Source of the DNA: Nanobdellota archaeon
Lineage (GTDB): Archaea; Nanobdellota; Nanobdellia; Parvarchaeales; Parvarchaeaceae
Length of the DNA stretch: 64,000 nucleotides
Direction of reading: 5' to 3'
NCBI GenBank assembly: GCA_021818905.1
Contig: JAKASS010000002.1
Coordinates: 24,142 to 88,141, forward strand
In this document: positions 4,051 through 33,367 of the stretch, piece after piece
Layout: each line of letters starts with the position of its first letter
Position numbering within the stretch: position 1 is the first letter of the stretch
Position numbers and translations under genes: made by a program
The notes under the pieces: generated by a model
The model's database searches: none
What the model was told of the DNA's origin: nothing
What the model saw: only the letters and a program-made list of their open reading frames with translations

Positions 4051-4140
4051 GTTTAGGCCAAGAATGGTCCCTGTATAAATACCTTAAAAACTCACAAGAT
4101 ACCTAAATAACTATAACGATTAATCCTGACAGGAATAAAA

Positions 4141-4213: not shown

Positions 4214-4279
4214 TTAATTTTTATATGAAGCCATTTATTTTAATAGCTTTTCTCTTCCTACGAACCTAGTTTTTCAAAA

Positions 4280-5647: not shown

Positions 5648-5717
5648 AAATTACTAATAAAATTGAGATATTTAAGCATTAGCAGACATAAAGCCAGCTA
5701 ACGATGAGAATGCATTT

Positions 5718-10795: not shown

Positions 10796-12685
10796 ATGGA
10801 TAACAAATTACACGTTCTTTCAAAAAACGGGGCATTTTTATTTAGATTCAATGATGGTGAATTTGGATCAAAATGGTGCGGTTTATGGAAGAAGTCTACA
10901 AAATATTTTGATTATTTTGCGTTTAAAATAAATGGAGAATATTTAAATCCTGGAAACTTAAAATCTTTTGATTTTTATAATTCGCAATTAGCCAGGCATA
11001 CTTTTTCATGTAAAAATCTAACCATAACCGAGGATGTTGTTTGTTTGGATGATGCTATAATAATAACTATAAAATCTGATTTGAATTTTAGACTAGACGT
11101 GGAGGTGGGCGTTAATATAAGAGATAGATCAGAAAATTATACAAAAGGCAAAAGGTATGCTTTAAGCCAAGAAAATAAAAAATTAAGTGTCTCTTATGGT
11201 GCAAAAACTGCTTATATTATATTCGATACTGGCAGCTTTACAAAAAACGAATATTATGGCATACATTCACCAGGACAGTATTCTATAGAAAAGGGCTTTA
11301 GTAAATATCTTGACGACGGTTCTATAGAGAATAAATATGTACCGGGAACGATAGTCGCCGATATTCCCAAAAATGGCGAATTTAATCTAATCCTATCAAT
11401 AAGAGATCTAGACAATGAAAGCATTCATAAGATTATAAAAAATAGCGTCTTTTCTGTTAAGCAATATGAAGAAATAATCAATAGCGTATGCAATTATTAC
11501 GGCGATATAAATTTAATAAACAAAAATTTTTTAAAGGATATCTTAGATGCTACATATTCATATGCTAACCTGATAGAAAAGGAGATTTATGCCGGGTTTC
11601 CTTACTTCAATGAATTTTGGACTAGAGATGCTCTTCTTGTTCTCCCGTCTTTCTTATCCTTGAATAACCCGATATTTGTAAAAGATATTCTCAAAAAGAT
11701 CGCTTACAATAGTGGCAACATAGGAATTCCAAATGTTTTTGAAAGCAATCTCAAACCGCTTGATGCACCTGCTCTTTTCTTGATAACTTTGCATGAATAT
11801 TTTATGTGGACAAACGATAAAGCGATTTTGCTAGAATTGGCTGATTTTATAAGAGGTCTAATAAAAAATGGACTTTCTTACCTAGAAAATGGACTAATAC
11901 ACGATAACGGAAGGGCATCTTGGATGGATTCTATAGACAGAGAATACTCTATAGAGGTACAGGCTCTTTGGGAAAAGGCATTAAAAGATGGCGTAGATAT
12001 CTTAAATTTTTTAGAAGATGACACAAGTGACCTGATAGCAATTGCAAGAAATTTACACATTAGATTCTCTGCTTATAAGAGAGGCAGTTATTTCTCTGAT
12101 CAGCTTGGCAAAGATATAAATTCCGGAAATCAAATAATCCCTGCATTTTTAAAAATAATCGAAAACGATGACGCGAAAATAATATTAAAGAATGCTGAAG
12201 AAAAGCTTCTTTCGGAATTCGGGGTCTTAAGCGTTGCAAAAGATGACCCAACATATAATTTTAATGGCTATCAAAATGGCGCGATTTGGCCATTGCTCAC
12301 CGCTATGCTTGCTGGTGCAGCCTATTGGTATGGAAACGAAAACCTAGGCAAAAAGTGTCTTAGCATCCTAAGAGAGAAAAATCTTTCTGCTCAATGTTCT
12401 TCTAGAATAAATGAGATATTCCAACCGGATGGGATACCAAAGGGCTGTCCTTCCCAGGCGTGGTCAATAGGACTTATTCCTCAAATCTTAGACAAGCATG
12501 TCTTGGGAATAGGCATGGACGCCCCGCATAGGATGATAAAAATAAGGGCCCCAATAAAAGGAATTAAAGTCGAACGAATACTATTCGTAGAAAACCAAGA
12601 GATTAAATTGAGCTTTCTAGACGGGGCGGTTTTCTCAAATAAAGCTATTACTGAATCTGAGGACGGTTTTATTATAAGTTTTTAA
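10796..12685 (+). CDS. amylo-alpha-1,6-glucosidase / glycogen-debranching-enzyme-like (alpha/alpha-toroid glycoside hydrolase, GDE_C type)
   Basis: 629 aa; motifs NEFWTRDA (FGRD-like) and GAIWPLLTAMLAGAAYWYG characteristic of GDE_C family. Confidence 0.55.
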   Translation: MDNKLHVLSKNGAFLFRFNDGEFGSKWCGLWKKSTKYFDYFAFKINGEYLNPGNLKSFDFYNSQLARHTFSCKNLTITEDVVCLDDAIIITIKSDLNFRLDVEVGVNIRDRSENYTKGKRYALSQENKKLSVSYGAKTAYIIFDTGSFTKNEYYGIHSPGQYSIEKGFSKYLDDGSIENKYVPGTIVADIPKNGEFNLILSIRDLDNESIHKIIKNSVFSVKQYEEIINSVCNYYGDINLINKNFLKDILDATYSYANLIEKEIYAGFPYFNEFWTRDALLVLPSFLSLNNPIFVKDILKKIAYNSGNIGIPNVFESNLKPLDAPALFLITLHEYFMWTNDKAILLELADFIRGLIKNGLSYLENGLIHDNGRASWMDSIDREYSIEVQALWEKALKDGVDILNFLEDDTSDLIAIARNLHIRFSAYKRGSYFSDQLGKDINSGNQIIPAFLKIIENDDAKIILKNAEEKLLSEFGVLSVAKDDPTYNFNGYQNGAIWPLLTAMLAGAAYWYGNENLGKKCLSILREKNLSAQCSSRINEIFQPDGIPKGCPSQAWSIGLIPQILDKHVLGIGMDAPHRMIKIRAPIKGIKVERILFVENQEIKLSFLDGAVFSNKAITESEDGFIISF

Positions 12686-17100: not shown

Positions 17101-18603
17101 ATAGGAGGTGATCCAGCCGCACGTTCCCGTACGGCTACCTTGTGGCGACTTAACCCTACTCACTGAGTCTAGATTCGGTTATCATTAATACGACAGTCTC
17201 ATCTAGATCCAACTTGTCTGGTTTGACGGGCAGTGTGTGCAAGGAGCAGGAAAGTATTCACCGCGCTTTGTTGAAACGCGGTTACTACGGATTCCGCCTT
17301 CACGAGGCCGAGTTACAGACCTCGATTCGAACTAGGATAAAGATTGTAGGATTGGCTTCTCCTTTCGGAGTTGCTTCCCATTGCCTTTACCATTGCAATT
17401 CGCGTGTAGCCCAGAAGATTAGGGTCATACTGACCTACCGTCGCCCTCACCTTCCTCTTTCTTTCGAAAGCAGTCTCCATATTTTGCTCGTTCATAACGG
17501 ATTACACGTTAGCAAATATGGAAGAGGGTCTTGTTAGTTACCCGACTTAACGGGACGTCTCAAGATACTAACTGATGATGGCCATGCAACACCTTTCAGC
17601 GTATTAGGCAAGTTCTTCAGACTGGCCTTCATCTTGCTGTCGCTTCTGGTAAGATTCCCGGAGTTGAATCCAATTGAACCGCAAATTTCACCCGTTTTTG
17701 TGCTCCCCCGCCAATTCCTTTAAGTTTCGACCTTGCGATTATACTCCCCAAGTGGCTTACTTAACGCCTTCGCTGTCACACTGCATTTCCTCAAGGAAAT
17801 GCAACGTATAGTAAGCAGCGTTTACTGCTAGGGCTACCCGGGTATCTAATCCGGTTCGTTCTCCTAGCCTTCGTCCCTCACCGTCAGGTCCGTTCTGGGA
17901 ATGCGCCTTCGCCACTGGTGGTCTTTTCCAGATTAAAGGATTTTACTCCTACCTAGAAAGTTCCCATTCCCCCTCCCGGCCTCTAGTCTGAAAGTATTCA
18001 TACCATATTGTCCAGTTAAACTGAACGATTTAAGCACGAACTATTCAAACCAGCTACGAACGCTTTAGACTCAATAATAATGGTCACCACTCGAGCGACG
18101 GGTATTACCGCGGCTGCTGGCACCCGTTTGCCCCGCTCTTATTCGCCATGCCATTTAAAAACATGGCAAAAGTTCCTTCTTAAAAAGAAGAAACACTTGG
18201 GATCCCCCTATCACACTTTCGTGCATTGTAGAGTTTTCGGGACTGCTGCACACCGTAGCGCTAGGGTCCTTGTCTCAGTACCCTTCTTGGGGAAACCACT
18301 TCCATGGCCCCTACTGATTTTAGATTTGGTGAGCCGTTACCTCACCAACAGTCTAATCAGGCATAGACCGATCGTAATGCGATTTATAACGGTAATAGTC
18401 ATAAACCTTTCACAATAAAATCGTTTCAGAAACTATTGCTATGGAGTATTAACCTCAGTTTCCCGAAGATATTCTCCTCATTACGGTACGTTATCTATGT
18501 GTTGCCTAAGCCGTACGCTATCAACCCTTACCGGGCAGATAAAACTTGCATGTCTCATTCGAATCCCAATAGCAGTGACCTCCAGCAGGATCAACTGGAA
18601 TTG
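17101..18603 (-). rRNA. rrs: 16S ribosomal RNA (unlinked, no adjacent 23S/5S)
   Basis: Minus strand: 5' end ATTCCAGTTGATCCTGCTGGAGG (revcomp of 18581..18603), 515-region GTGCCAGCAGCCGCGG (18105..18122 revcomp), 1390-region, 3' end GGATCACCTCCT (revcomp of 17103..17114). Confidence 0.9.
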
Positions 18604-19313: not shown

Positions 19314-19865
19314 ATGCGACGCTTTATTCTGTATTCAAGGATAGGGTATACGGGGCCATTCAGAGGCTCATTGTTAGATGCCGGTAGACTTGACACGGTT
19401 TATCAATGTATTTTGACTTCTCTTTTCGTATCACACGGAATAAGGCGCGACGTAGAATTTCACGTATTCCTATACGGAAAACCAAATCCGCCACTTCACT
19501 TAACTGTAGACGGAAGGGCCTTACATGATGTAAGAATCGATGAGAACACCTGGAAAGACATATTGAATAAAGTACTGAGCGGGGGTGCTCACCCGGGTAT
19601 CAGCATTTCTAAGGAAGGGATAGAAACTTATACCAAACTGCTTAAAGAGAAATATATATTGAGTGAAAAAGGCGAGGACATAGCTACAGTCACTTTTGGA
19701 GACCCTACTTTTTTTGTCGGAGACCATGTCGGATTGCCCAAAAAATTTGAGGACTCGTTATCAAAAAACGGCGCTAAAAAAATATCAATCGGCCATGAAA
19801 GATATCTTGCGGCTTCTGCGCTAGACATAACGAATTATGTACTTGACGAAAAAGGGGTAATATAA
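19314..19865 (+). CDS. trmY: tRNA (pseudouridine54-N1)-methyltransferase TrmY (SPOUT, DUF358)
   Basis: 183 aa; GRLDTVYQCILTSLFVSHGIRRDVEFHVFLYGKPNPP closely parallels Methanocaldococcus TrmY GRLDLLCRCV...HDIRRDVVFY..LYGQPNPP. Confidence 0.7.
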   Translation: MRRFILYSRIGYTGPFRGSLLDAGRLDTVYQCILTSLFVSHGIRRDVEFHVFLYGKPNPPLHLTVDGRALHDVRIDENTWKDILNKVLSGGAHPGISISKEGIETYTKLLKEKYILSEKGEDIATVTFGDPTFFVGDHVGLPKKFEDSLSKNGAKKISIGHERYLAASALDITNYVLDEKGVI

Positions 19866-19882
19866 GTTCTGACGTGCGTAGA

Positions 19883-20311
19883 CTAACGAATAAGGCCTTC
19901 TACTTCCTTTTTTATATTTAGCCGTATGTATTCGGCCTGCTTATCACTTTCGTAAAGATGCCTTGGCCACATAAAACCTTTTAGCCCATCCCCTTTGTTT
20001 CTCGGTATTATATGTATATGCAGATGGGGCACGCTTTGACTGATCGTATTATTTATTATGATCAGAATGCCTTCCGAAGACATTGATTTCTTTACTGCTT
20101 CTGATAGAATTTTAGTATTTTTGAACAATTTTGATACCAGTTCATCCGGAACGTCCATTATCGTTTCAAAATGTTCCTTTGGTATGACCAAACAATGGCC
20201 ATAGAAGACTGGTTTATAATCCAGAAATGCAAACGTTGTCTCGTCCTCAAAAACGACATTCACGCTTTCCTCCCTCTTTACAAATGCGCAAAATTTACAA
20301 TCATATTCCAT
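19883..20311 (-). CDS. HIT-family hydrolase (Hint-like)
   Basis: 142 aa; histidine triad HLHIHIIP. Confidence 0.8.
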   Translation of the reverse strand: MEYDCKFCAFVKREESVNVVFEDETTFAFLDYKPVFYGHCLVIPKEHFETIMDVPDELVSKLFKNTKILSEAVKKSMSSEGILIIINNTISQSVPHLHIHIIPRNKGDGLKGFMWPRHLYESDKQAEYIRLNIKKEVEGLIR

Positions 20312-20430
20312 ATAGTTATTTGGCGCTGATTATTAATTAAGTTCTCCGCATCAAAAAGCTTGTATTATGTAAATTTACTACTAAACATTCGTATCAACAA
20401 GTATTAAAATAGGGTACTTCTTATAATTAC

Positions 20431-21612
20431 GTGGAAAAGCTGAAGATAGCGTTCTACACTGACAGCTATCTCCCCATAAAAGACGGTGTTACAAGGTATA
20501 TTGTAACAATGCGTAAAGAACTAGAGAGGCGGGGACATGAAGTCTTTGTAATAACAGCTGGAGACCAAAAGACCCAGGAATTAGCCGAAAATGATCCGCA
20601 TCTTATAGTGCTTAGGGGGATAAAATTTATAGACAACAAATCGATTTTGGCTCTTGACCCGACTGTGCTTTTGCAGGCGATAAATGGCAGAAATTTTGAT
20701 ATAATACATGCACAGAGCCCATTTTCTGTTGGTTTATCCGCTGCGTTTATATCTAAAATCACAAAAGCTAGGCTAGTTACTACTTTTCACACGCACTTTT
20801 TCCACAGGCTAGCACTTTCTAAGTACATATCCTATGTCTCGGGTTTTCTTTCTTCTAATCGGTTTTTGATTAAAATATCTAAATTCTTTATGGTGGGGTA
20901 TCTAAAACTATATTACTTTGGTTGTGATAAAGTGATTTCTCCATCGAAATTTGCTAAGAGACTCCTTCGAAGAAATGGTATAAAAAATGTAGAAGTTATC
21001 GAGAACGGCGTTGAGATAACAGATACGCTTAAAATAAGTAAAAACGAAGCCAGACAATTAATTGGGTTTTCAAAAAGGGATAGAATAATACTATACCTAG
21101 GAAGGGTAGATAAGGAGAAAAACTTAGAATTTCTCTTAAAGGCGGCTAGACCTCTTGCTAAAAAGGGCTTTAAGATAATAATTGCCGGGCGTGGGCCACA
21201 CCTTGACGAATACAGAAACAAGAGTATGATCATGGGGCTCGAAAATGTGTATTTCCCGGGTTTTATAAAAGAAGAAGAAAAAAGATATTATTACCGAGCA
21301 GCAGATATCTTCTGTAATCCTTCTACATTTGATACGGCATGTTTAGCTGATATAGAGGCAATGAACTTCAACCTACCGATACTTGTGCCGAAAATAGGCG
21401 CTCAGGCAGAGTTCCTTAAAAAAGGGAACGGCGGGGAAACATTTAGTACGAACAACATTTCTGAATTTGTTGTGAAGGCGATGAAAATAATTAAAAGTAA
21501 AAGACGTTATATCCCAAGATTTGTCGCCAGAAAATTCAACATAAAAGTTTCGGCTGATAAACTTATCGCACTTTACAAAAGAGTATTATCAAATAAGCAC
21601 ACTATTTTTTAA
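20431..21612 (+). CDS. GT4-family glycosyltransferase (paralog of 5718..6869)
   Basis: 393 aa; N-terminus MEKLKIAFYTDSYLPIKDGV...RKELERRGHEVFVITAG nearly collinear with the other GT4; C-terminal EAMNFNLPILVP. Confidence 0.8.
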   Translation: MEKLKIAFYTDSYLPIKDGVTRYIVTMRKELERRGHEVFVITAGDQKTQELAENDPHLIVLRGIKFIDNKSILALDPTVLLQAINGRNFDIIHAQSPFSVGLSAAFISKITKARLVTTFHTHFFHRLALSKYISYVSGFLSSNRFLIKISKFFMVGYLKLYYFGCDKVISPSKFAKRLLRRNGIKNVEVIENGVEITDTLKISKNEARQLIGFSKRDRIILYLGRVDKEKNLEFLLKAARPLAKKGFKIIIAGRGPHLDEYRNKSMIMGLENVYFPGFIKEEEKRYYYRAADIFCNPSTFDTACLADIEAMNFNLPILVPKIGAQAEFLKKGNGGETFSTNNISEFVVKAMKIIKSKRRYIPRFVARKFNIKVSADKLIALYKRVLSNKHTIF

Positions 21613-21615
21613 TAC

Positions 21616-22695
21616 ATGCAAAAAAAATTAAAAAATGCTATTTCTGTTATAACGAGATGCAGGGGGGACAAAGGATTCTACGCCAGTTCAGAAAGATACA
21701 AATATGAATATTGGACGCGAGACCTGTGTTACTGTGTTAATTCGCTTATTTCCTTAGGCTTTGCAAAAGATGTTAAAAACCAACTTCTTACAATATGGAA
21801 AAAGCAGGCTATGAACGGAGAAGTGCCACGTTACATGATAGATAAACGTTTTAAATGGTTACCTGGAAAGTTATTTACGAAAATACGGAATGGGAAGATT
21901 CTAAGCACTATAAAATCGTTGGATACCATGGAAACGCGATTCAATAAATGGACGATTGACTCAACGCCATTAACGGTTATAGCTACCTACAAATATGCAG
22001 CGGCTTCTGGCGATTCACACATAATAGAAGCGCTAAAGCCACAAATAGAAAAGGCACTTCGGTATACAAAACTGCATGTGAGAGATTTTCTTATACGGGG
22101 CGGTGACTGGAGAGATTCTATGCCGTGGCTTAGAAACAAATTTCTTCTTTCCAATAACGTAATGCTTTACGAACTCTATAAAATACTTGGAGAAGGTGGA
22201 AAGGCAACCATAATAAAAGATAGAATAAACTCCGAATTTTGGAATGGCGAGTACTATACAGATTTTATCGGTAGTGTAAACTTTGATTGCTTTGGCGCAT
22301 CATCAGCCGTTCTTTCTGGTATAGTGCCAAGAGGTCATTTTAAAAAACTCTCAGAGAAGATTTTATCTGCATCTTCAAAATATGGCATAAAGAATATGGT
22401 GGAAGTTAAACCTGTGAACCGCGAAGAAAATGGTGCAAATGAAAGCTGTAATCAGAGATATGCTATTTGGCCGCTAGTAAATACGTATGCAATAATGGCT
22501 ATTAGAAAAATGGGAGCAAATGCCGCTGCTGAAAAAGAACTTAAAAAGATGGAAAATTTATTAGGCTTTCGCGAATGGTACAATCCTGATACTGGCGATG
22601 GCCACGGTAGCAGGGAGCAATTGTGGAGCGCCGTAGCTTATTACGAGTTGATAAAGGTGCTTAGATACTCAAATTTATTGTACACTTATAGGTAG
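21616..22695 (+). CDS. alpha/alpha-toroid glycoside-hydrolase-like protein (short GDE_C / GH63-like)
   Basis: 359 aa; YEYWTRD motif like 10796 gene, WSAVAYYEL C-terminal pattern; starts 4 nt after GT4 stop. Confidence 0.4.
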   Translation: MQKKLKNAISVITRCRGDKGFYASSERYKYEYWTRDLCYCVNSLISLGFAKDVKNQLLTIWKKQAMNGEVPRYMIDKRFKWLPGKLFTKIRNGKILSTIKSLDTMETRFNKWTIDSTPLTVIATYKYAAASGDSHIIEALKPQIEKALRYTKLHVRDFLIRGGDWRDSMPWLRNKFLLSNNVMLYELYKILGEGGKATIIKDRINSEFWNGEYYTDFIGSVNFDCFGASSAVLSGIVPRGHFKKLSEKILSASSKYGIKNMVEVKPVNREENGANESCNQRYAIWPLVNTYAIMAIRKMGANAAAEKELKKMENLLGFREWYNPDTGDGHGSREQLWSAVAYYELIKVLRYSNLLYTYR

Positions 22696-22732
22696 TAAAA
22701 GTATTTATATTGGTGCTTTTCTTTAAAATGCT

Positions 22733-23389
22733 ATGGAAAGTAGTCTCGAACGTATAATAGAACTAGCAAAGACGATGAGAAAAACTGGTAGAGTAGCCGA
22801 TACTCCTTACTTCTTTAAATCAAAACATGGTCTATTTGGATCAAGATATGGAAAAAGAACTAAAAAATATGGCATAGAAATATCTATAGAAGACGAGTAC
22901 AATACGCTTACTAAAATGCATGAAGTGATACCTGAAAATTCCCCTAAACCGATTACACTTATAAGAGATGATAAAGGGTCTACAAATGGCTATCTTATGA
23001 CTATTGTACCTGGAAAGAAATTAGAACGGTATTTCTCTGTCCCAGACAAAGCTAGAAAAAGCCTTGCTAGCGCATTAACAAAACTGCGTGAAAGTAATGT
23101 AGTACATGGGGATTTAAGAACTAAAAATATACTTGTAACGGGGGATAATATAAGTATAATAGACCCTTTTGGTACAAATTGCTACGCTGATTACAGAAAA
23201 AAAGACGCCGAACAAGATGCGGTTTTTGAAAACTCTATCATGAAAGCATTCCCACCGCACACGCAAACTTCTGGAAATCCATATGGTGTCCTATTAGCCC
23301 TTGTGGACCGATTTAAATACGGGTTTAATGCCAGGGTAGCTTACCATATCGGAAATAGGGGTTCAACAAATATTCCATACTTGCGATAA
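22733..23389 (+). CDS. small atypical protein kinase, RIO/Bud32-like
   Basis: 218 aa; catalytic loop VVHGDLRTKNILV and metal-binding IIDPFG (DFG-like) as in RIO/Bud32/Kdo-kinase family. Confidence 0.45.
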   Translation: MESSLERIIELAKTMRKTGRVADTPYFFKSKHGLFGSRYGKRTKKYGIEISIEDEYNTLTKMHEVIPENSPKPITLIRDDKGSTNGYLMTIVPGKKLERYFSVPDKARKSLASALTKLRESNVVHGDLRTKNILVTGDNISIIDPFGTNCYADYRKKDAEQDAVFENSIMKAFPPHTQTSGNPYGVLLALVDRFKYGFNARVAYHIGNRGSTNIPYLR

Positions 23390-23412
23390 GTTAATAAAGC
23401 GTAACTAAGACT

Positions 23413-23525
23413 TGGGGTCAGCCGGATTTGAACCGACATCAAACGCTTTCTTCTAATCATCCTTTAAAAGTCATTTTTCCAGACGAGCTGGAGGCGTTTG
23501 TTCTACCTGGTTAAACTATGACCCC
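23413..23525 (-). tRNA. tRNA-Trp (anticodon CCA) with ~40-nt intron in anticodon loop
   Basis: Minus strand: acceptor GGGGTCA/TGACCCC, D-arm, anticodon stem AACGC/GCGTT with loop CTCCAG|intron|A, T-arm GTCGG-TTCAAAT-CCGGC; total 113 nt. Confidence 0.7.
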
Positions 23526-24056
23526 TTAGGTAAAGATTTTATACTTATCCTTATTCTCCATCTCTTCCAGTATCCTTCCTTCTATGCTCCTCATGATATT
23601 GGAAGAAAGTTGTAGTCTCTCGTCTATTTCTACATAAGACTCAAAAGGCTTTTTCTTTCGTTCTTCTAATAGTTTTTGTGTAAGCTTTTTACCCATCCCT
23701 GGAATTAGCTCTAAAGCATGTAGTCTTACGTTTATGGAGCCAAGCGTGTTTATTGTTCCTACATATTTCTTTTCGTTTTCTTGTACAATCTTGTGAACGA
23801 ACTCTTTTAGGCTGTCAAGACCGGTTTCTGTCAATTTACTTGGCGTTATTCTACCGATTATATGGTGTATCTCGTCTCTCTTATTTTCGCCTATGTAAAC
23901 TCTTTTTCCAGCCTCTACAGTTACGTTCTTTTTCAAAGCGGCGATTAACAATGAAAGAGAATCGGTCAATATGACTGCGGATGAGTGCCTATCTTTAGAA
24001 TCTACGATGCCATAGGGTAGGTATTCTAAAACATATGCGTATTCGTCCTTTCCCAT
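23526..24056 (-). CDS. conserved archaeal HhH-containing nucleic-acid-binding protein (DUF655/COG1491-like)
   Basis: 176 aa; helix-hairpin-helix LIPGMGKKLTQKLLEER; conserved position downstream of rpl21e-rpoF. Confidence 0.4.
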   Translation of the reverse strand: MGKDEYAYVLEYLPYGIVDSKDRHSSAVILTDSLSLLIAALKKNVTVEAGKRVYIGENKRDEIHHIIGRITPSKLTETGLDSLKEFVHKIVQENEKKYVGTINTLGSINVRLHALELIPGMGKKLTQKLLEERKKKPFESYVEIDERLQLSSNIMRSIEGRILEEMENKDKYKIFT

Positions 24057-24078
24057 ATTATATTGTTAGCTGTGCCGA

Positions 24079-24408
24079 TTATAAATGCTTCTTTATAACG
24101 GCGAGAATTTTCTTTATATCGTCTTCTTTTATCGTAGATTTAAGAGGGGCTAGTATTGCTCTAACTTGATCGACTGACGCGGGCGCTGCGTCTATAAGTA
24201 TTCTTACATAGTCATCCCGAATATCTAGGTTCAGACCGATTATCTCATTGAAAGCTTCATCAAAGTTGTTTACTTTAACATTTTTCTTTATGTGTTCAAT
24301 AAGCCTTTTTCCTGATTCGTGGGCCGTATCGATATAATCCATATACTTTTCTTTGAGTTCTGTCTCGCTCAGTAGCTTTTCATCTATTATTTCGTATTCC
24401 ATATTCAA
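24079..24408 (-). CDS. rpoF: DNA-directed RNA polymerase subunit F (Rpo4)
   Basis: 109 aa acidic protein between rpl21e and DUF655-like gene, matching the conserved archaeal rpl21e-rpoF arrangement; 4-nt overlap with L21e gene. Confidence 0.5.
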   Translation of the reverse strand: MNMEYEIIDEKLLSETELKEKYMDYIDTAHESGKRLIEHIKKNVKVNNFDEAFNEIIGLNLDIRDDYVRILIDAAPASVDQVRAILAPLKSTIKEDDIKKILAVIKKHL

Positions 24409-24695
24409 AGTTTCTTAAGATGAACTGGCAGCAAATCAACGGTTTTAGCCATTGTTCCTTGCATTACCTGTACCGTGTAGGCACGTCCTTTTTTCTTCAA
24501 TACGATGCCATTTATCCCAAAGAAACGCCGGTGTGGTATGTTTCTCTGAACTGATGCGCTTGGATCTATTAAAACGCGCTCACCTTCATTAAAAGATTGC
24601 AATGCCTTTTTTAAATCTATCTTGCCTCTGTCTTTTTTTCTTAATGCCAATCGTCTTCTTGAACGGTGGTGGGCGCCTTTTCCGGTTATTGACAT
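24405..24695 (-). CDS. rpl21e: 50S ribosomal protein L21e
   Basis: 96 aa; HRRFFGINGIVLKKKGRAYTVQV matches L21e core (HK.YHGKTG.V). Confidence 0.8.
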   Translation of the reverse strand: MSITGKGAHHRSRRRLALRKKDRGKIDLKKALQSFNEGERVLIDPSASVQRNIPHRRFFGINGIVLKKKGRAYTVQVMQGTMAKTVDLLPVHLKKL

Positions 24696-24750
24696 ATCTA
24701 TATCTTAGCCAATTTAGAGTATTTATATCTACCTAAACTGAGCAAATAAA

Positions 24751-24833
24751 TGCAGAGGGTGGGATTTGAACCCACGAAGGCCTGAGCCATAAGGTCCTTA
24801 GCCTTACACGTTTGACCGCTTCGCTACCTCTGC
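24751..24833 (-). tRNA. tRNA-Leu (type II, long variable arm); anticodon reads AAG
   Basis: Minus strand 83 nt: acceptor GCAGAGG/CCTCTGC, discriminator A73, variable arm TGGCTCAGGCC, T-arm GTGGG-TTCAAAT-CCCAC; anticodon loop CTAAGGA. Confidence 0.7.
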
Positions 24834-24927
24834 TTTGATAAACTTAATTTGATTGTTTATTGATTATAAATATTGCACGATTTCTAAACTATTTTCTATA
24901 ATTACTTTCCATAAATTTATTATTTCG

Positions 24928-26007
24928 TTAATTATTCCCTGTTATCAAACAGAATACTGATTTACCTTTAAATAGGGCCGGGTGCGTTTTATTTATTTTC
25001 AAAGTTCCGGCAAACGAAGCTGCGCCGCCTAGTTCTGAATATATCCTTGATTCATGTAATTTTCTGCGCGCAAATTCTAACTCTGCGTCACTCACGCTTA
25101 AAGCTAAACCATTTGTTTCTTTTAGCGCTTCAACGCCTTCAAAACCAAATGTTGGGTATCCAACCGCGATGGCATCCGCTTTTGTGTTTGAATGCATATA
25201 AGTTAATCGTTTATGCTGGTTATACGCCCTCACTAACGGGTCACATCCTCTAGCTTGCACCGCTATGAGCCTAGGCAATTTATTTATCATCTTGATTTTT
25301 CTTAATTCCTTAATTCCTTTGTATAATGCGGCTAATAGAGTGGCGTTTCCAACCGGCAAAATGATAAAATCAGGTAATTTTCCTAATTGGTCAAAAATCT
25401 CAAAAACTATACTTTTTTGCCCTTCTTTTCGATAATGATAATCGCCACATAGAAATATGTTGTTTACTTTTGAAAATAATTCTGCTGTCCCTAAGGCCGT
25501 ATTAAAATCCCCTTTAATCTCGACTATCTCAGCACCGGCCTTCTTAATTTTGGCTATCTTTTCAATTTTAGCATCTTTACTGATGAATATCGTGCACTTT
25601 TTTCCAAATCTTTGGGCGTAAGTTGCGATAGAAAATCCCATGTTGCCAGTTGATGCGCAACAGACTTCTTTAAATCCTAATTCGATCGCCTTTGTTATTT
25701 CTACAGATGAACCGCGGTCTTTGAATGAATTAGTTGGGTTATGTGTTTCAAGCTTTAACATCAAGTTGACGTTACCTATCTTATAATTAACAATGGGAGT
25801 TCCCCCCTCACCCAAGCTTAAGAGTTTTCCTGATGTCGGAAAAAATTGTTTGTATTTAGAATGTTTTATTTTCCCGCTGCCTAAATCAATTTTGTCAGGA
25901 TATTTGTAATCGACTTCGAGTATAGAATTGCATTTATTGCACCTATACATCTGGCTCTTGGGGCCATAAATTGACGTGCACGATGTGCATTTTAAACTAT
26001 ATTTCAT
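24928..26007 (-). CDS. thrC: threonine synthase
   Basis: 359 aa; N-terminal Cys4 ribbon (CTSC...CNKC), PLP-lysine motif NPTNSFKDRGSS, fold-type II PLP enzyme. Confidence 0.8.
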   Translation of the reverse strand: MKYSLKCTSCTSIYGPKSQMYRCNKCNSILEVDYKYPDKIDLGSGKIKHSKYKQFFPTSGKLLSLGEGGTPIVNYKIGNVNLMLKLETHNPTNSFKDRGSSVEITKAIELGFKEVCCASTGNMGFSIATYAQRFGKKCTIFISKDAKIEKIAKIKKAGAEIVEIKGDFNTALGTAELFSKVNNIFLCGDYHYRKEGQKSIVFEIFDQLGKLPDFIILPVGNATLLAALYKGIKELRKIKMINKLPRLIAVQARGCDPLVRAYNQHKRLTYMHSNTKADAIAVGYPTFGFEGVEALKETNGLALSVSDAELEFARRKLHESRIYSELGGAASFAGTLKINKTHPALFKGKSVFCLITGNN

Positions 26008-26055
26008 AATGTACTTGACACAGACTATATCAGGTTATAATATTTAAAATCTAAT

Positions 26056-26129
26056 TGGGGTAGCTGGGATTTGAACCCAGAACAACGGACCCCCGAAGCC
26101 CGCATCATACCAAGTTAGATCACCACCCC
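26056..26129 (-). tRNA. tRNA-Pro (anticodon CGG)
   Basis: Minus strand 74 nt: acceptor GGGGTGG/CTACCCC, anticodon stem CGGGC/GTCCG loop TTCGGGG, T-arm CTGGG-TTCAAAT-CCCAG. Confidence 0.65.
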
Positions 26130-26154
26130 GATTTTAAGTGATTGAATATAATGC

Positions 26155-27156
26155 TTATAACTCTTTTCTTGTATACTTAGGATAAGTCCCGGGTTTCATT
26201 ACAACGCTATCTGTTTTTATTGCGATACCCTTCTTGCCTTCGATTATGTCTTGCGACGATAAAACTGAGTTCCCAAGCCCGATTAATTCGCCTTTAAGAG
26301 TCGAAAGGAACACCGTATTTCCAGAATCAAATTTATTCATTTTTACCAGGCCTGGAACAGCAAGAGGAGAACCATGACAAATGGTATCAACCGCGCTGTC
26401 AGAAATATAAACTTTTGGTAAAAAATCTATGGCAGACTCTATGTTCTGCATACAATACGATAAGAACCTGTCATCGTTTTCTTTTTCTTTATAGTACATC
26501 GCGTCATCAAGGTCCTGTAGGGTAACTAGGTTGTCTTTCTCTGTTAAATTAGATACTTTTGTCCTTCGCAACTCTGACATGTGCGCGCCTACGCCTAATT
26601 TTTCCCCCATATCGTGTATAAGTTTTCTTATGTAAGTCCCAGACTCTACGCCGGTCCTAAATAGCACGTCGTTCCCTTCCACTTCCAGTATGTCTAGATA
26701 ATAAATCTCACGTTCTCTGTACTGTCTTTTGACACTTGACCTAACCGGCGGCAGTTGCATTATCTTACCTGTAAACTCTTCGAATGTTTTTGATATCTTA
26801 TTTATTTTAACTTCGCTATGTAGGTGCATTAACGCTACATATTCCTTTCCGCCAAAGAGAAGAACTGATATAGCTTTGTTTGCAGAGTTTATCGCTAAAG
26901 GTAATAGCCCTGTCACGTTGGGATCCAGAGTACCGGAATAGCCTATTTTTGAAACGCCGATAGGAGAAAGTATATTTTTAGCTATAACCGCGGCGGTTTT
27001 AGACCTAGTTCTTGGTGGTTTATCTAAAAGTATCATGCCAAAATCTAATTTTTGAGAAAGGTTGCGCTTTTCTGGATAGCAACCATGAGAATCATCGGTA
27101 CTTTCATCTGAAAAAACAATGATTTCTTTTTTAATATCTTCTAATGGCAGTTTCAT
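26155..27156 (-). CDS. cbf5: tRNA/rRNA pseudouridine synthase Cbf5 (H/ACA RNP catalytic subunit, TruB family with PUA domain)
   Basis: 333 aa; TruB motifs GYSGTLDPNVTGLLPL and C-terminal PUA region. Confidence 0.85.
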   Translation of the reverse strand: MKLPLEDIKKEIIVFSDESTDDSHGCYPEKRNLSQKLDFGMILLDKPPRTRSKTAAVIAKNILSPIGVSKIGYSGTLDPNVTGLLPLAINSANKAISVLLFGGKEYVALMHLHSEVKINKISKTFEEFTGKIMQLPPVRSSVKRQYREREIYYLDILEVEGNDVLFRTGVESGTYIRKLIHDMGEKLGVGAHMSELRRTKVSNLTEKDNLVTLQDLDDAMYYKEKENDDRFLSYCMQNIESAIDFLPKVYISDSAVDTICHGSPLAVPGLVKMNKFDSGNTVFLSTLKGELIGLGNSVLSSQDIIEGKKGIAIKTDSVVMKPGTYPKYTRKEL

Positions 27157-27758: not shown

Positions 27759-30700
27759 TTAAGATGTTGGGCTTGCGTTTATTGGTGTACTAGCGAGTAA
27801 TTCACTGTTGTTGCTGAATACTTCAGGCAGGTAGCTGAGATTGGCACAATAATCAACTGCAGAAGGTGACACTGAACAGAAGTCGCTTTGATTTAGTAAA
27901 TTGTACTGACTTAATGCCGTATAATTTATTGCGTATACGTTTATGTTAGTCAAGACTTGATTCCCTATGCTTAACAAGCTATCCTGCGGTAGACCATCAG
28001 TAAATATCTCCGTAAAACCAGGTACTGTCTCATTCAAAAGATAAAGTTTTACAAAGAGTGTATCCAATGACTTTTCTGGTAAATAAAGTACCCCTGGCCC
28101 ATTTCCATAAATCTGCGTATTTATCGGAGCGACTTCATATCCTCCCGTAGCAGCATAGCCCCCCATATTAAGATTTACGGTATTTGTGTCGTTAAGTATC
28201 ATAATTCCCCCCGGTATAGCGCTCGAATTAGTTGTAACCCGATCGCATCCGACACCGAAGACGCAGAAGTTTTCTATAGGTAATGGATTTGAAACTTGTT
28301 TGGTCAGCGCATTATAAACTATACCATACACTACCTGACTCTGCACGAAAGACGAATTTGTATAATTATAAGGTATTAAAACTTCTACTAAAATAGTAAC
28401 TGAAGAATTCCACGGCACTCCGTCTATAACCATATTTGATTCTATCGGACCTAAACCGGCACTGCTGCTACCCCCAAAAATTGCAAGATTCTGGTAGTCT
28501 TTATTACCTATGTTATTAGAATTTGCTGACGGCCGATCTTCCGCCATCGGAGTAAATTCGGTTAGATTCAAGGCTATAGTAGATATCGCCGAAAATTTCT
28601 CGACTTCGCTACCGCTTATAACTGCGTACGTAGGATTATGTATAAAGTTAAGGTATGTAGAATACTGGTAGGGCGACGTAGCTTCAAAGAAATAATCTGC
28701 TATCATAGATTGGTAGCCATATGCATTACTTCCGTCAGCCACAGCCGTTCTATTCGCAATAGCTTCTTCCCAATAACCGTAATCCCACCAAGATATTATG
28801 GAGGTATTAACTGGCGTATTGTAGTTTATCCAGAGCATTGTTGGCCCCCACAAAGCTAATCCGCTTCCACTTCCTTGTGATGTTAGATAAGAGGCTTGTA
28901 GGCTATTATTAAGGTCGACTACAAGAAATATTATGGCAACCAATATAATTATTGCGCTTACCGCAAACGCGGTTTTCTTAGAAGATTTTAAGATGTTGTT
29001 AACATATTTTACGACAAAAGTAACTATAAAAACCGCAGCGAACGGCAGAACTATAATGCCTATAAAGCCAACCGATTCAAGAAGCTGGTTCTGCAAATTT
29101 GCAAAAAGCATGGCAAGAATATAAAATATAAAGGCTACCATGTACACGGATTTGTGCGATGTTTTCTCATCTAATTTATCAAAAAAGAACGCTAAAAGCA
29201 GTATGATGATTATGCCAAAAATTCCATATTCATAGTAAGTGGTAGTTTGTTCTGCTAAGAAAAGAGAAACTAACAAAATAAGAGAAACTAACGTCATAAA
29301 GACAATTGAAGTTAATGAACGTTTAACATTGGCCCCTTTTCTATTCAGACCAAACCAAACTAAAGGGATAAATGCGGCAAAAACGAAAACTAAAAGCACG
29401 GACGTCGGGCCTGAGCCTTGAGTTGTGTAATTGCCTCCGAAAATAAGCAACAAAAATGGTAAAATTGCTAAGAAAGGCAGATACCAATGTTTGAAGCCCT
29501 TAAGAAAGTAATAAAGAAGAAAGATTCCTCCCAACAAAAGAAGTAGAAAGTTTATGCTTATAGCATTTGCGCCTGTACCAATCAGACCTCCTGCATCGAC
29601 CATTCTATCTAAGAGTGTAGTCTGGCCATATTCTGCAATGGTCTGCGTTACTGGATTTGCTGCGCTTATACCTAACGGTGACTGAATTTCAGATAGAAGA
29701 TGTGAGAAAATACTGGAAAGTTTGCCAGCTAGAGCCAAAAGGGCAACAAGTATTATTGTGCTATAGATAGCAATTGATGCGCCTATATTAACAAAAGGAA
29801 TTTTTAATTTGTTTCCATATCTATCATAAATAAGTAGTTTAAACAGAACCATCGCATAGCAGAGATAAATCGCGTAATATTGGGCACCTGTAACCAATGA
29901 GTCCGGGGTCAATGTAACGAAACTTGCTAATATCGGGATAAAAAGTGCAAAGGGCAAGAAAGCATAAAGGTCTCCTTTTTTGACATAATTAAATAATATC
30001 ATTATTATGTATACCAAAGGTACCAAAAAGAAAAGAAATTTAGAAAACCCACTAGAATCTGCTGTTAAAGCAGTTGCAAAAGCAACCATAAATCCGTAGA
30101 GTATTTTTGATCTTGTTTCTTTTGATTTAAGCGCTTTTACCAAAAAGTAGACTGCAAGTAATATCATCAAGAAACCCATTGCATCTTTGGTGGAGAAGCC
30201 TGCAGTTGTTCTATTTAACAAGGTCTGAAATACGGGCATCATAAAGCCGCTTAACGCTGCTATCCAATAATCACCGAATAATTCTAAACATATAAAAAAT
30301 AATATGACTGTAGCCAAAGCTGCGACTATTACCGGGTATATCATAAACCACGTCATAGAAGTCGCCGCGGGGAATATTGGCGTTAAAATACGAAACAAAA
30401 AGGCGCCAAAGAAAGAGATTAATAGTGGATCGCCTCTAGTAACCGCACCTATAGGTAAGTATTGTATGTGGTTTATTATCGGGACGGTACCGGTATGTAT
30501 TATCGTGTTCATTTGGATATAAAACGTATATGGGTCTAAACCGGTTAATGAACCCCCCATATTTAGATAGCCATTGCCTATTAATGGTGATGCGCCAAGG
30601 GCAGGTAGACTTGCAGAACGTATAACAACTCCTATCACTATTGCGATTACAAGCAGGATATAAAACAGAACTCTCTTTTGTATGAATACATTATACAGCG

Positions 30701-30953
30701 TTCTAAAAACTTTTTTGGCAGAATCAAAGTTTACTTGTATCTCAACTTCTGTTATTTTTTCCTTTTTAGCTGGCTTAAGCTGTTCTAATCCAGAACTCTC
30801 AGTCTTTAATTTATCCAATCGCGCCTGCCGTTTTTTTAGTTCTTCAAGCTCTTTCCTCAGTCTGATGTTTTCAGTTTCAATTTCTTTATCTACTCTTTTT
30901 TCAGCACGCTCTGTCTCAGATTCTATCTTTTTTAGCTCATCGTCTTCAGTCAT
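27759..30953 (-). CDS. aglB: oligosaccharyltransferase AglB (STT3 homolog) with N-terminal coiled-coil extension
   Basis: 1064 aa; ~13 TM helices followed by the STT3 signature SWWDYGYW and a large N/S/T-rich extracytoplasmic C-domain; first ~95 aa are E/K-rich coiled coil. Confidence 0.85.
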   Translation of the reverse strand: MTEDDELKKIESETERAEKRVDKEIETENIRLRKELEELKKRQARLDKLKTESSGLEQLKPAKKEKITEVEIQVNFDSAKKVFRTLYNVFIQKRVLFYILLVIAIVIGVVIRSASLPALGASPLIGNGYLNMGGSLTGLDPYTFYIQMNTIIHTGTVPIINHIQYLPIGAVTRGDPLLISFFGAFLFRILTPIFPAATSMTWFMIYPVIVAALATVILFFICLELFGDYWIAALSGFMMPVFQTLLNRTTAGFSTKDAMGFLMILLAVYFLVKALKSKETRSKILYGFMVAFATALTADSSGFSKFLFFLVPLVYIIMILFNYVKKGDLYAFLPFALFIPILASFVTLTPDSLVTGAQYYAIYLCYAMVLFKLLIYDRYGNKLKIPFVNIGASIAIYSTIILVALLALAGKLSSIFSHLLSEIQSPLGISAANPVTQTIAEYGQTTLLDRMVDAGGLIGTGANAISINFLLLLLGGIFLLYYFLKGFKHWYLPFLAILPFLLLIFGGNYTTQGSGPTSVLLVFVFAAFIPLVWFGLNRKGANVKRSLTSIVFMTLVSLILLVSLFLAEQTTTYYEYGIFGIIIILLLAFFFDKLDEKTSHKSVYMVAFIFYILAMLFANLQNQLLESVGFIGIIVLPFAAVFIVTFVVKYVNNILKSSKKTAFAVSAIIILVAIIFLVVDLNNSLQASYLTSQGSGSGLALWGPTMLWINYNTPVNTSIISWWDYGYWEEAIANRTAVADGSNAYGYQSMIADYFFEATSPYQYSTYLNFIHNPTYAVISGSEVEKFSAISTIALNLTEFTPMAEDRPSANSNNIGNKDYQNLAIFGGSSSAGLGPIESNMVIDGVPWNSSVTILVEVLIPYNYTNSSFVQSQVVYGIVYNALTKQVSNPLPIENFCVFGVGCDRVTTNSSAIPGGIMILNDTNTVNLNMGGYAATGGYEVAPINTQIYGNGPGVLYLPEKSLDTLFVKLYLLNETVPGFTEIFTDGLPQDSLLSIGNQVLTNINVYAINYTALSQYNLLNQSDFCSVSPSAVDYCANLSYLPEVFSNNSELLASTPINASPTS

Positions 30954-31012
30954 AAGTGATTTAATAGTATAAAGAAAACGCTGGTGCTTTTAAATCTTTC
31001 TTGTGACTACAT

Positions 31013-31810
31013 TCAAAAGTGCTGGCTAGACAAATCCCATTCGTCGTGCTTCCATAAAAGAAAGTCTGGATTATTCAGAAATTTAAAATGTTCTGGATGT
31101 GAAATATATTCATCATAAATACTTTTGTTTGAATCTAAAAACTCTATCTTTGGCGCGTCCATATGAGTTATCGATACATTTTTGTAATTCTGGTTTAAAA
31201 CTATGGTCTTTTTATCTGTTAAATAGACTGCCCCACCATGCATCTCCATAATCGGTTTATAGTTTGATTCAAATTTAGAATTTACCAAGTTTGCTTCAAT
31301 CAATAGCTCTTTACCAATATTTACGGAGATATGACCGTAATTTGGTTCCATTATGACTTTATCACCCGCTTTTGCGTGTATTAGTTTTATATCATAACTG
31401 CCGTCTTCGCATCTTTTCTGCAATATATAAATAACTTCACCAGAGACTACCTCATAAAGTTCAGGGTACATCAGATCGTCTTTGCAGATTGGATGATAAT
31501 GCCCAAAAGTCTTATTAAATTCTCCACCCAGGTTATAGTTCATGATAACCGTAACGTCGTATCTCATGTCGTGCGCTTCGAATATAGTATTATTCTTACG
31601 TTGACCCGCGGCCCTAAACATATAGTATAAGCCATCATCTTTATTTTTGTTATTTATAAAATTCTGGTTAAAAAGTACGTTTTTCATATCAGAAAGTTTC
31701 CTCACGGAAAAAGGAACTTCTTCCCTATCTGCGTATAGCTTCCTTATTTTTTCATCATAGTCTAGCTCTACTGCATTTACATTTAGACGCATATTAGTCC
31801 TTATATCCAA
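31013..31810 (-). CDS. cupin-type glucose-6-phosphate isomerase (cPGI)-like
   Basis: 265 aa; TFGHYHP metal site, VRKLSDM, and PELYEVVSGEVIYILQ / IMEPNYGHISVNIG cupin motifs paralleling Pyrococcus cPGI (TKGHFH ... RRLSDM). Confidence 0.55.
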   Translation of the reverse strand: MDIRTNMRLNVNAVELDYDEKIRKLYADREEVPFSVRKLSDMKNVLFNQNFINNKNKDDGLYYMFRAAGQRKNNTIFEAHDMRYDVTVIMNYNLGGEFNKTFGHYHPICKDDLMYPELYEVVSGEVIYILQKRCEDGSYDIKLIHAKAGDKVIMEPNYGHISVNIGKELLIEANLVNSKFESNYKPIMEMHGGAVYLTDKKTIVLNQNYKNVSITHMDAPKIEFLDSNKSIYDEYISHPEHFKFLNNPDFLLWKHDEWDLSSQHF

Positions 31811-31831
31811 TAATATTAAAGTGTTTTTAAA

Positions 31832-33367
31832 TTATATCTTAAAATGCAAAAACTTGTCTAATCTACTTAATTTTAAGAAAAAGTTTATGTCCTTCCTGGT
31901 CAATACGCCCATCACATATATAATAAAAAGATAAAGAACAAAGCTTCCGATAAGAATAACCGGAAGCAGCGCCAAAGAAACCGTTTTGTCTAAAATGTAT
32001 ATAATCCCGCCCATGAGTAGCGATGCTATTGTAATTTTCAGCATGACAAAATAAGGCAAAGTTATTTTTATATATTTTGAAGTAAAATAAAGGTTTACCG
32101 TCAGTATGGCCGTGCTCGAAAGTAATATTACAAATGCTGCGCCGGTGGCAAAAAATATAGGAACTAAAATCAGTGTGCTAATAAGACCAACAACTGCACC
32201 GGCTACGCTAGAATACAAAACATATTTTTGCTTGCCTATAGCACTTACAATATTCGTTAAAGGACCAAACAAGGCCATTAAAAACGTGGCGACCATGACG
32301 ATTATGAATGGGGTTTCGGCCCCTAAAAATGAAGAACGGTAAAAGTAAGAGATTAAAGGCCCTGCAGCAATTATTCCCCCTATTAATAATGGTATGGTAA
32401 ACATAGATACGTACCTCAATATTAAATTCATAAACCCGTAAAATTTATCAAGCTGTTTTGTCTCAAAATATTTTGTATTTGTAGAGAAAAATGCTGAGCT
32501 AAGAGCACTTGCTGGCATTGCTATAAGAGCTGCAAGATTCCATCCAACGGCAAAAAATGAAACTGACGATAAATTTGGTGCAAAGACTCCGAGGATAAGT
32601 ACTATCGCTGAGCCGTAAAAATAAGATATCAGATTATGCCCGTATGAGAACCAGTTATACCTGTGAAACTCACTTAATTCTTTCTTAGGCACGGGTCTCT
32701 CTTTTTGAATCTTATTTTTGCGTAATAATTTATAAACAAAATATAGGGCGACGGCCGCTACAATTATATAAATAACATCATAAAACGCTATAACACCTAG
32801 AAGACCTAAACCAAAAAATACTATGGCAACTTGCACAAGTCTTAAAGCGTCAAAGGTTATACCGGAAAAAAAAGTGTATTTAATTTTCTGGTAACCTACG
32901 TATACATTGGTAGCAAAGCCTTCGGTTATTCCATAGAAAACTATACCCAACGCCAAAATCTCTATAAGACTTTGCATTTGCGGTACCCTATACGCTGCTG
33001 CAATTGGCCCGGCTAAAACGAACATTACAATTGAACCTAATATGGAGCTTATTATAAGTATCATAAGATAGTGCTTCACCAACCAATTTAGCTTTCCAAA
33101 TTCGTTATGCACTCTATATTTTGCTATTCCATATTGCACAGCGTTTCCTAACCCAAGTAATGCGATCGTTGTGAACATTGCCCAATAAATCGTGGCTATC
33201 GTGTATATACCATAATCTATAGAGCCTAAGAATCTTACAAGAAATATGCTAACAATAAAAGCTATGAACGACTTTGACAAAAATCTAAAAAAGTAGTAGA
33301 GGCTATTTGATGCAACTAAAGATTGCTCTGTTTCGATTTCGGAAGCCCTTTCGTCAGTTTCATCCAT
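31832..33367 (-). CDS. MOP-superfamily polysaccharide/oligosaccharide flippase (Wzx/AglR-like)
   Basis: 511 aa, ~14 predicted TM helices, polysaccharide-biosynthesis-protein architecture; adjacent to aglB. Confidence 0.7.
   Translation of the reverse strand: MDETDERASEIETEQSLVASNSLYYFFRFLSKSFIAFIVSIFLVRFLGSIDYGIYTIATIYWAMFTTIALLGLGNAVQYGIAKYRVHNEFGKLNWLVKHYLMILIISSILGSIVMFVLAGPIAAAYRVPQMQSLIEILALGIVFYGITEGFATNVYVGYQKIKYTFFSGITFDALRLVQVAIVFFGLGLLGVIAFYDVIYIIVAAVALYFVYKLLRKNKIQKERPVPKKELSEFHRYNWFSYGHNLISYFYGSAIVLILGVFAPNLSSVSFFAVGWNLAALIAMPASALSSAFFSTNTKYFETKQLDKFYGFMNLILRYVSMFTIPLLIGGIIAAGPLISYFYRSSFLGAETPFIIVMVATFLMALFGPLTNIVSAIGKQKYVLYSSVAGAVVGLISTLILVPIFFATGAAFVILLSSTAILTVNLYFTSKYIKITLPYFVMLKITIASLLMGGIIYILDKTVSLALLPVILIGSFVLYLFIIYVMGVLTRKDINFFLKLSRLDKFLHFKI

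Follow-up and report, generated by a model that had tools for sequence, protein, structure and literature searches.

A conserved glycosyltransferase-hydrolase gene pair with a neighbouring passenger kinase in a Parvarchaeota genome

Three consecutive genes, encoding a glycosyltransferase of family GT4, a compact glycoside hydrolase and a small kinase, were analysed within a stretch of 64,000 nucleotides (hereafter, the window) of the Nanobdellota archaeon assembly GCA_021818905.1 (contig JAKASS010000002.1, positions 24,142 to 88,141 of the forward strand). The first two genes constitute a functional module that is conserved across Parvarchaeota, while the third is a passenger. With about even confidence, the pair is read here as a module that makes and cleaves an alpha-glucosyl group on a common acceptor, the kinase being unrelated to that function. 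Synthase/hydrolase pairs are a known kind of system; what is new here is that the pair is built on an uncharacterised family of minimal clan GH-G enzymes, with an orphan kinase alongside.

The three open reading frames (ORFs) were confirmed in the common orientation that an earlier note on this DNA had described (Table 1). That note placed their spacers at 4 to 37 nt; the longer one, between hydrolase and kinase (22696-22732), indeed measures 37 nt, while the one between the GT4 and hydrolase genes is 3 nt (21613-21615) and not 4. In comparison with L006, one of the related loci (designated here by L numbers) and one whose 16S rRNA is 99.4% identical, the ratio of nonsynonymous to synonymous substitution rates (dN/dS) is 0.037 for the GT4, 0.072 for the hydrolase and 0.159 for the kinase gene, and this purifying selection on all three ORFs marks them as genuine genes rather than chance reading frames. 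In the NCBI assembly GCA_027328365.1 the GT4, hydrolase and kinase genes are arranged in the same way, and the hydrolase is identical. Moreover, the genomes of the closest homologues are all metagenome-assembled genomes (MAGs) of Candidatus Parvarchaeota, in which the hydrolase is 83% and 80% identical and the gene order is the same, and the 16S genes on the long syntenic contigs L001 and L016 are about 95% identical to that of the window. Judged from these sequences, the source of the window is a tiny, symbiotic DPANN archaeon of the ARMAN-4/5 type (Parvarchaeota), so that the Thermoplasmata setting assumed in the earlier note was not borne out.

Wherever a hydrolase orthologue of at least 45% identity is accompanied by upstream sequence, a GT4 orthologue (57-87% identical) lies directly upstream of it, except in L011. 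The gap between the two genes is +3 nt in the window and L006, +5 in L001, +6 in L048 and +11 in L016, with overlaps of 7 nt in L013 and of 16 nt in L003 and L012. The pair is also found in Acidifodinimicrobium, a basal family of Parvarchaeota (PMC7779479). Its flanks vary, being of the type TrmY-HIT...DUF655 in the window, L001 and L016, containing additional inserted genes in L048, and being of the type M50 protease-TFIIE...AAA_14 in L003 and L012; because of this variation, the pairing is more than inherited gene order. The synthase-plus-hydrolase layout proposed for the cluster stands as an evolutionarily conserved pair, and a check of synteny in relatives recovers the pair but not the trio.

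The sequence of gene 1 clearly points to a retaining GT4 glycosyltransferase of the MGS/PimA-like branch, in agreement with its earlier assignment to GT4. Both Rossmann halves of the GT-B fold are matched above the gathering score, with 98.8 bits for Pfam Glyco_transf_4 (PF13439; cutoff 28.5) and 93.2 bits for Glycos_transf_1 (PF00534; cutoff 26.4), and the motifs GR..EK (GRVDKEK) and PSxx(D/E)-x7-EAM (PSTFD...IEAM) are kept across 24 DPANN homologues. The top NCBIfam match is alpha-monoglucosyldiacylglycerol synthase (MGS; NF049988, 117.2 bits, E=1e-33), in a full-length alignment of residues 5-354 with model positions 2-351, followed by GlcN-phosphatidylglycerol synthase and then IagA/BgsA; all three scores lie below the equivalog cutoffs, which for NF049988 is 400 bits. 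Similarly, the top match in the PDB is PimA, a GT4 enzyme with a lipid acceptor, and many relatives of gene 1 bear the JGI label 1,2-diacylglycerol 3-alpha-glucosyltransferase.

The GT-B fold and the GT4 family are common to gene 1, PimA, IagA/BgsA and the 1,2-diacylglycerol 3-alpha-glucosyltransferase of Acholeplasma laidlawii (alMGS, NF049988). Like alMGS, the protein has about 390 residues, is very basic, and has no transmembrane segment and a predicted cytoplasmic or peripheral location; its isoelectric point (pI) of 9.9 is the second highest among the 32 window ORFs for which it was computed. As in the MGS/DGS system, a second paralogue is present in the same genome (pI 9.86; Table 1), and the MGS-like GT4 subfamily is widespread in Parvarchaeota. 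Unlike alMGS, however, gene 1 has an archaeal host, with ether lipids, and a glycoside hydrolase as its partner, a pairing undescribed for MGS.

Gene 2 encodes a complete single-domain (alpha/alpha)6 hydrolase of the clan GH-G type, not a truncated debranching enzyme, and belongs to an uncharacterised family of about 350 residues whose nearest neighbours are GH100, GH176 and GH63. The barrel begins at about residue 2 and the family members span 346-366 aa; the two-domain architecture with an N-terminal beta-sandwich was not found in the protein, which consists of the barrel alone. Its catalytic set comprises the fixer R35-D36 in the motif WTRD, the general acid D167 in W165-x-D167 (W-R-D), the general base E320 (GF.EWY) and Q335 in the -1 subsite. 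R35-D36, D167 and E320 are invariant in 13 close homologues and at least 90% conserved in 34 homologues, and the catalytic residues align with GWKDS of 7VMA, with FPEYYD of InvA and with those that the GH176 preprint lists. Neither a signal peptide nor a transmembrane segment was found, and the pI is about 9.6.

The description of gene 2 as a GDE_C-like protein of about half the length of a debranching enzyme that nevertheless keeps WTRD is correct as to length (359 aa against 629 aa for a GDE_C protein elsewhere in the window and 620 aa for PDB 7VMA), motif (YEYWTRD, residues 30-36) and superfamily, the protein being an (alpha/alpha)6 hydrolase of the debranching-enzyme/GH63 kind. The GDE_C identity itself fell away: Pfam GDE_C gives no match to the hydrolase at E<=0.1 and matches only three of 34 family members. 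The full-length GDE_C protein of the window resembles the 359-aa protein at the level of motifs only, and its presence as a separate gene means that the 359-aa protein is not the debranching enzyme of this genome. Other models reach the hydrolase in part. Pfam MGH1-like_GH (PF22422) scores 36.1 bits against a gathering threshold of 27, restricted to residues 283-338 (model positions 295-356 of 356); the NCBIfam glucosylglycerate hydrolase (GgH) model NF047898 gives 23.4 bits against a cutoff of 550; and Pfam Glyco_hydro_100 does not match the hydrolase itself, although it matches six of 34 family members.

The GH176/GH133 GDE_C group, represented by TgAMY (PDB 7VMA) and the Arthrobacter alpha-1,2-glucosidase, provides the top single-sequence PDB match (7VMA, E=8e-5) and shares with the hydrolase the W-x-D acid motif (GWKDS in 7VMA, DWRDS here), the R-D fixer and the glutamate base; the GH176 enzymes are inverting alpha-glucosidases, but GH176/GDE_C enzymes consist of two domains of about 620 aa in total with an N-terminal beta-sandwich, whereas the hydrolase is a barrel only. 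GH100 and GH37 are likewise single-domain. With the GH100 invertases (Anabaena InvA/InvB, PDB 5GOO/5Z73), 14% of the residues are identical; the hydrolase is about 100 residues shorter, the substrate-binding (+1 subsite) residues appear not to be conserved, and there is no evidence of sucrose metabolism. The GH63 enzymes mannosylglycerate hydrolase (MgH; TTHA0978) and GgH (PDB 5OHC) have the clan GH-G barrel in common with the hydrolase, but the match extends over its C-terminal 56 residues only. Mini-hydrolases of this family are also widespread in MAGs of the candidate phyla radiation (CPR)/Patescibacteria. A second hydrolase copy, 40% identical, occurs at L043 (7261-8337) in the MAG that carries L009, and a 39% identical copy lies among other flanking genes at L019 (ARMAN-5; 7989-9053).

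From the gene structure, fold, catalytic residues, conservation and tight coupling of the pair, all of them observed, a sugar, an acceptor and a cycle between synthesis and cleavage are inferred as follows. GT4 enzymes form alpha-glycosidic bonds from nucleoside diphosphate (NDP)-sugars, and the substrates that GH-G enzymes hydrolyse are terminal alpha-gluco(manno)sides. The GT4 would act in the cytoplasm, where it would attach a hexose, probably glucose, in alpha linkage; the donor would be an NDP-sugar supplied by the phosphoglucomutase (PGM) and nucleotidyltransferase genes that lie elsewhere in the window. The hydrolase, probably co-translated with the GT4 directly upstream, would be an inverting enzyme that cleaves a terminal alpha-glucosidic bond, so that an alpha-glucosyl group would be added to and then removed from a common acceptor in a build/trim or synthesis/turnover cycle. 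The two partners point to different acceptors: because of the homology of the GT4, a lipid or lipid-linked acceptor is suggested, and because of the relatives of the hydrolase, a small soluble glycoside. On the present homologies, a membrane-lipid or lipid-linked acceptor is slightly favoured over a soluble one.

A soluble product is the content of an alternative that is somewhat unlikely yet credible, in which a single GT4-catalysed step yields an alpha-glucoside or alpha-mannoside compatible solute or a disaccharide (resembling trehalose, sucrose, kojibiose or glucosylglycerate), the hydrolase degrades it once it is not required any more and the kinase is irrelevant. The nearest structural relatives of the hydrolase all have small soluble substrates (sucrose for GH100, trehalose for GH37, the MgH/GgH glycosides for GH63 and kojibiose for GH176), the single-domain build of the hydrolase recalls GH100 and GH37, its Pfam and NCBIfam matches fall on MGH1-like and GgH C-terminal motifs, coupling within the pair is tight, and sucrose-phosphate-synthase-like GT4s are among the PDB matches of gene 1. 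However, the lipid glycosyltransferase matches of gene 1 rank ahead of these (1e-33 against about 1e-5 to 1e-8), TreT gives no match to gene 1, no phosphatase partner adjoins the pair, and the GgH score of the hydrolase (23 bits) lies far from its cutoff of 550. The cycles of the glucosylglycerate or mannosylglycerate type to which the earlier note had likened the cluster follow conceptually the same synthase-plus-hydrolase logic for an alpha-glycoside, and that much of the analogy holds. The specific analogy found no direct support, as the known glucosylglycerate and mannosylglycerate synthases belong to GT81/GT55/GT78 and the partner synthase here is a GT4 nearest to lipid glycosyltransferases; a soluble alpha-glucoside cycle in the wider sense may still apply.

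An involvement of the pair in glycan metabolism, either in the synthesis and trimming of an alpha-glucan of the glycogen kind or in the assembly and trimming of dolichol-linked N-glycans for a nearby AglB, is quite improbable. The JGI annotation calls one hydrolase orthologue a glycogen debranching enzyme, GH133 and GH15 appear among the fold matches of the hydrolase, and the GT4 shows weak glgA-type matches of 38-43 bits and an Agl16 match of 33 bits; genes for AglB, a Wzx-like flippase and glucose-6-phosphate isomerase follow 4-10 kb downstream, and GH63 glucosidase I trims N-glycans in eukaryotes. Against this, the glgA and Agl16 scores are far under their cutoffs, the genome has its separate full-length GDE_C, housekeeping genes stand between the pair and aglB, the pair of L003 and L012 has other surroundings, where aglB is not among the genes called, and a hydrolase with neither signal peptide nor transmembrane segment cannot trim glycans outside the cell.

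Several points weigh against the proposed glucosylation cycle and its lipid acceptor. L011 (4960-7144) carries two tandem hydrolase genes and no GT4, and the distant hydrolase homologues (at most 42% identical, from CPR bacteria and other DPANN) have neither an adjacent GT4 nor any recurrent neighbour; given these homologues, the hydrolase is able to act on a common substrate by itself. With the hydrolase family and this GT4 subfamily both uncharacterised, the sugar and the acceptor are extrapolated from remote homologues (14-20% identity for the hydrolase; 117 against 400 bits for MGS), and such homology is known to be a poor guide to the acceptor specificity of GT4 enzymes. To our knowledge, every single-domain GH-G enzyme characterised so far has a small soluble glycoside as its substrate, which speaks against a lipid acceptor. 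In addition, a high pI is common in this genome, the hydrolase and kinase also reaching about 9.6. As the distant homologues lack both GT4 and recurrent neighbour, their distribution shows that the hydrolase, also able to function alone, became paired with the GT4 within Parvarchaeota.

If the acceptor is a lipid, a further step may be considered, although it is itself unlikely: the GT4 might attach alpha-glucose to archaeol or tetraether cores taken from the host, and the hydrolase might remove this glucose or the host's own sugar, so that scavenged lipids would be remodelled. This idea of head-group remodelling arises because an MGS-like enzyme is present in two copies and Parvarchaeota have been reported to lack lipid biosynthesis and to rely on external lipids (PMC7779479).

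The third gene encodes an intact orphan kinase with a minimal RIO/Bud32 fold, under purifying selection. The RIO/Bud32-like core proposed for it was recovered, as was the catalytic loop HGDLRTKN (residues 125-132, followed by IIDP), and its family shows no variation at K29, E53, H125-G-D127, N132 and D144. This family is small, with only three clusters in 5.8 billion proteins and 365 weak matches in 1.84 billion representatives. Pfam RIO1 (28.5 bits, cutoff 22) and WaaY (22.4 bits, cutoff 20.3) match marginally, the trusted cutoff of no other family is reached, and Pfam APH aligns with 22 residues of the catalytic loop (23.9 bits, 0 significant stretches). Unlike RIO1/RIO2, the kinase appears to have no RIO N-terminal winged helix-turn-helix domain or flexible loop, and unlike RIO, Bud32, WaaP/WaaY/Kdo kinase, NleH/OspG and ArkI, it has a family-specific conserved C-terminus, NARVAYH..GS.

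Of the two identities suggested earlier for this kinase, that of a KEOPS Bud32 that happens to lie here by chance is already largely refuted and is regarded as extremely unlikely. The Bud32 model TIGR03724 (arch_bud32) gives 36.5 bits over residues 85-173 only, against a cutoff of 125; none of the 81 nearest kinase relatives is Bud32, and no relative exceeds E=3.5e-11 on the Bud32 model; no Peptidase_M22/Kae1 gene was found within the 64-kb window as a neighbour for the kinase. Unlike the universal single-copy Bud32, moreover, the kinase is patchily distributed and absent from syntenic Parvarchaeota loci. The second suggestion, a sugar kinase like maltokinase Pep2, did not survive either, as no maltokinase match was present in the Pfam, NCBIfam or PDB lists.

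The kinase lies in a hypervariable slot that extends from the hydrolase stop codon to the 3' end of a tRNA gene (Table 1); this tRNA and the DUF655 gene beyond it are kept in L001, L006, L009 and L016. The slot holds a kinase 92% identical to that of the window in L006-8/L010, and a kinase only 39% identical in L009, though the hydrolase there is 83% and DUF655 95% identical. In L016 and L013 the slot is empty, in L001 it contains a GT2 gene and a 135-aa ORF, and in L048 AhpC and a 141-aa ORF. The slots of the Acidifodinimicrobium type in L003 (7191-8369) and L012 (9194-10372), which likewise adjoin a tRNA, contain an AAA_14 ATPase that matches the PADLOC candidate defence family PDC-S01 (E=2e-18). 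A kinase 51% identical (P0015) stands in an unrelated neighbourhood adjoining neither hydrolase nor GT4. Within the spacer before the kinase, a box similar to the archaeal TFB-recognition element (BRE) and TATA box suggests a separate promoter and a near-leaderless transcript, and L006 shares these roughly 40 nt ahead of its kinase gene, although its hydrolase gene ends further upstream. In the comparison of the window with L006, the synonymous rate (dS) is 0.25 for the kinase, 1.9 for the GT4 and 1.6 for the hydrolase, and the low value of the kinase is consistent with a recent independent exchange. Across 19314-27156 the dS values form a mosaic, 0.25-0.39 for kinase, Rpo4 and HIT and 1.6-2.2 for GT4, hydrolase, TrmY and the PALP enzyme; such a mosaic between genomes of nearly identical 16S suggests frequent recombination among Parvarchaeota populations.

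With only the closest relatives carrying the kinase and other Parvarchaeota having different slot contents, the earlier inclusion of this gene in the cluster as a unit cannot be upheld. Two points tell against the status of passenger: the dS values are noisy or saturated and are low for HIT and Rpo4 as well, and the closest relatives keep the kinase beside the pair, so that a lineage-specific functional link is possible. A true three-gene operon, in which the kinase (Pep2/maltokinase-like or WaaP/WaaY-like) would phosphorylate a sugar or glycolipid that is the substrate or product of the pair, is nevertheless distinctly improbable. The kinase is missing from most pair-bearing genomes (L001, L003, L012-16, L048), its 51% identical homologue is not beside a hydrolase or GT4, its promoter-like box and discordant dS set it apart, and no Pep2/Mak-type match exists, the sugar-kinase matches being no better than the protein-kinase ones.

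Table 1. Positions of the cluster and of other features in the 64-kb window
Feature	Position	Strand	Remarks
Sugar-1-phosphate nucleotidylyltransferase	835-1548	-	Pfam NTP_transferase 79.5 bits
Phosphogluco/phosphomannomutase	1541-2941	-	Pfam PGM_PMM_I-IV
galT-like gene, split in two ORFs	C-domain 2975-3466, N-domain 3487-4050	-	
Membrane protein	4280-5647	-	455 aa; weak CARDB/Wzt_C similarity
Paralogous MGS-like GT4	5718-6869	-	383 aa; 45% identical to gene 1; unlinked to hydrolase; Pfam and tblastn (P0035 100% identical)
Full-length two-domain GDE_C protein	10796-12685	+	629 aa; archaeal-type debranching enzyme / GH176-like; Pfam GDE_C 84.9 bits
16S rRNA gene	17103-18601	-	Archaeal; standing alone
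GT4 glycosyltransferase gene (gene 1)	20431-21612	+	GTG start; 393 aa; first gene of conserved pair
Hydrolase gene (gene 2)	21616-22695	+	359 aa; second gene of conserved pair; predicted inverting alpha-glucosidase
Spacer with archaeal BRE/TATA-like box AAAAGTATTTATAT	22696-22732	+	Box about 29 nt upstream of kinase ATG
Kinase gene (gene 3)	22733-23389	+	218 aa; accessory, outside conserved module
tRNA gene, intron-containing (probable)	23413-23525	-	Rfam tRNA 53.7 bits; 3' end bounds variable slot
IS240-type DDE transposase	45932-46981	+	Beside aldehyde dehydrogenase
Thermopsin-family acid protease	56653-57942	-	Fits acidic habitat
Second tRNA gene	58000-58085	-	86 nt; Rfam
ORF of 726 aa	60424-62604	+	No Pfam match; stretch of higher GC (0.45)

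Elsewhere in the window, a sugar-activation cluster on the minus strand (835-6869) also holds a tRNA-Asp gene and the MGS-like GT4 paralogue and adjoins DnaJ-DnaK-GrpE; the probable role of its genes at 835-2941 is to supply NDP-sugar to the GT4s, a link that is drawn by deduction. The minus-strand region 27759-33367, which contains the AglB/STT3 oligosaccharyltransferase (1064 aa), a cupin-type glucose-6-phosphate isomerase and the Wzx-like Polysacc_synt flippase, is possibly an N-glycosylation neighbourhood. The plus-strand segment 45932-48646 has a local GC content of 0.46, compared with about 0.38, and may have been acquired recently. Both the tRNA gene bounding the slot (113 nt) and that at 58000-58085 were found by Rfam only and missed by ARAGORN, and at least the former probably contains an intron. 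Rfam found no 23S or 5S genes in the window, so that the rRNA genes are unlinked, and the ORFs over the 16S gene (e.g., 18080-18418) are spurious.

For annotation, the labels now given to the hydrolase, 'glycogen debranching enzyme' or 'hypothetical', are unjustified, and the kinase is easily mislabelled as Bud32 or RIO; its position illustrates a hypervariable cargo slot beside a tRNA in tiny genomes. If the substrate of the pair is a soluble alpha-glucoside, a new minimal synthase/hydrolase cycle would be at hand. Should the pair instead act on lipids, it would be among the first enzymatic handles on how lipid-auxotrophic DPANN alter host-derived membranes, and the remodelling idea, if true, would mean that an episymbiont tailors a membrane it cannot synthesise. 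Either way, the hydrolase represents an uncharacterised branch of clan GH-G, about 350 aa in length and present in many DPANN and CPR genomes, which could constitute a new family at the CAZy level, composed of minimal GH-G enzymes typical of ultra-small symbionts.

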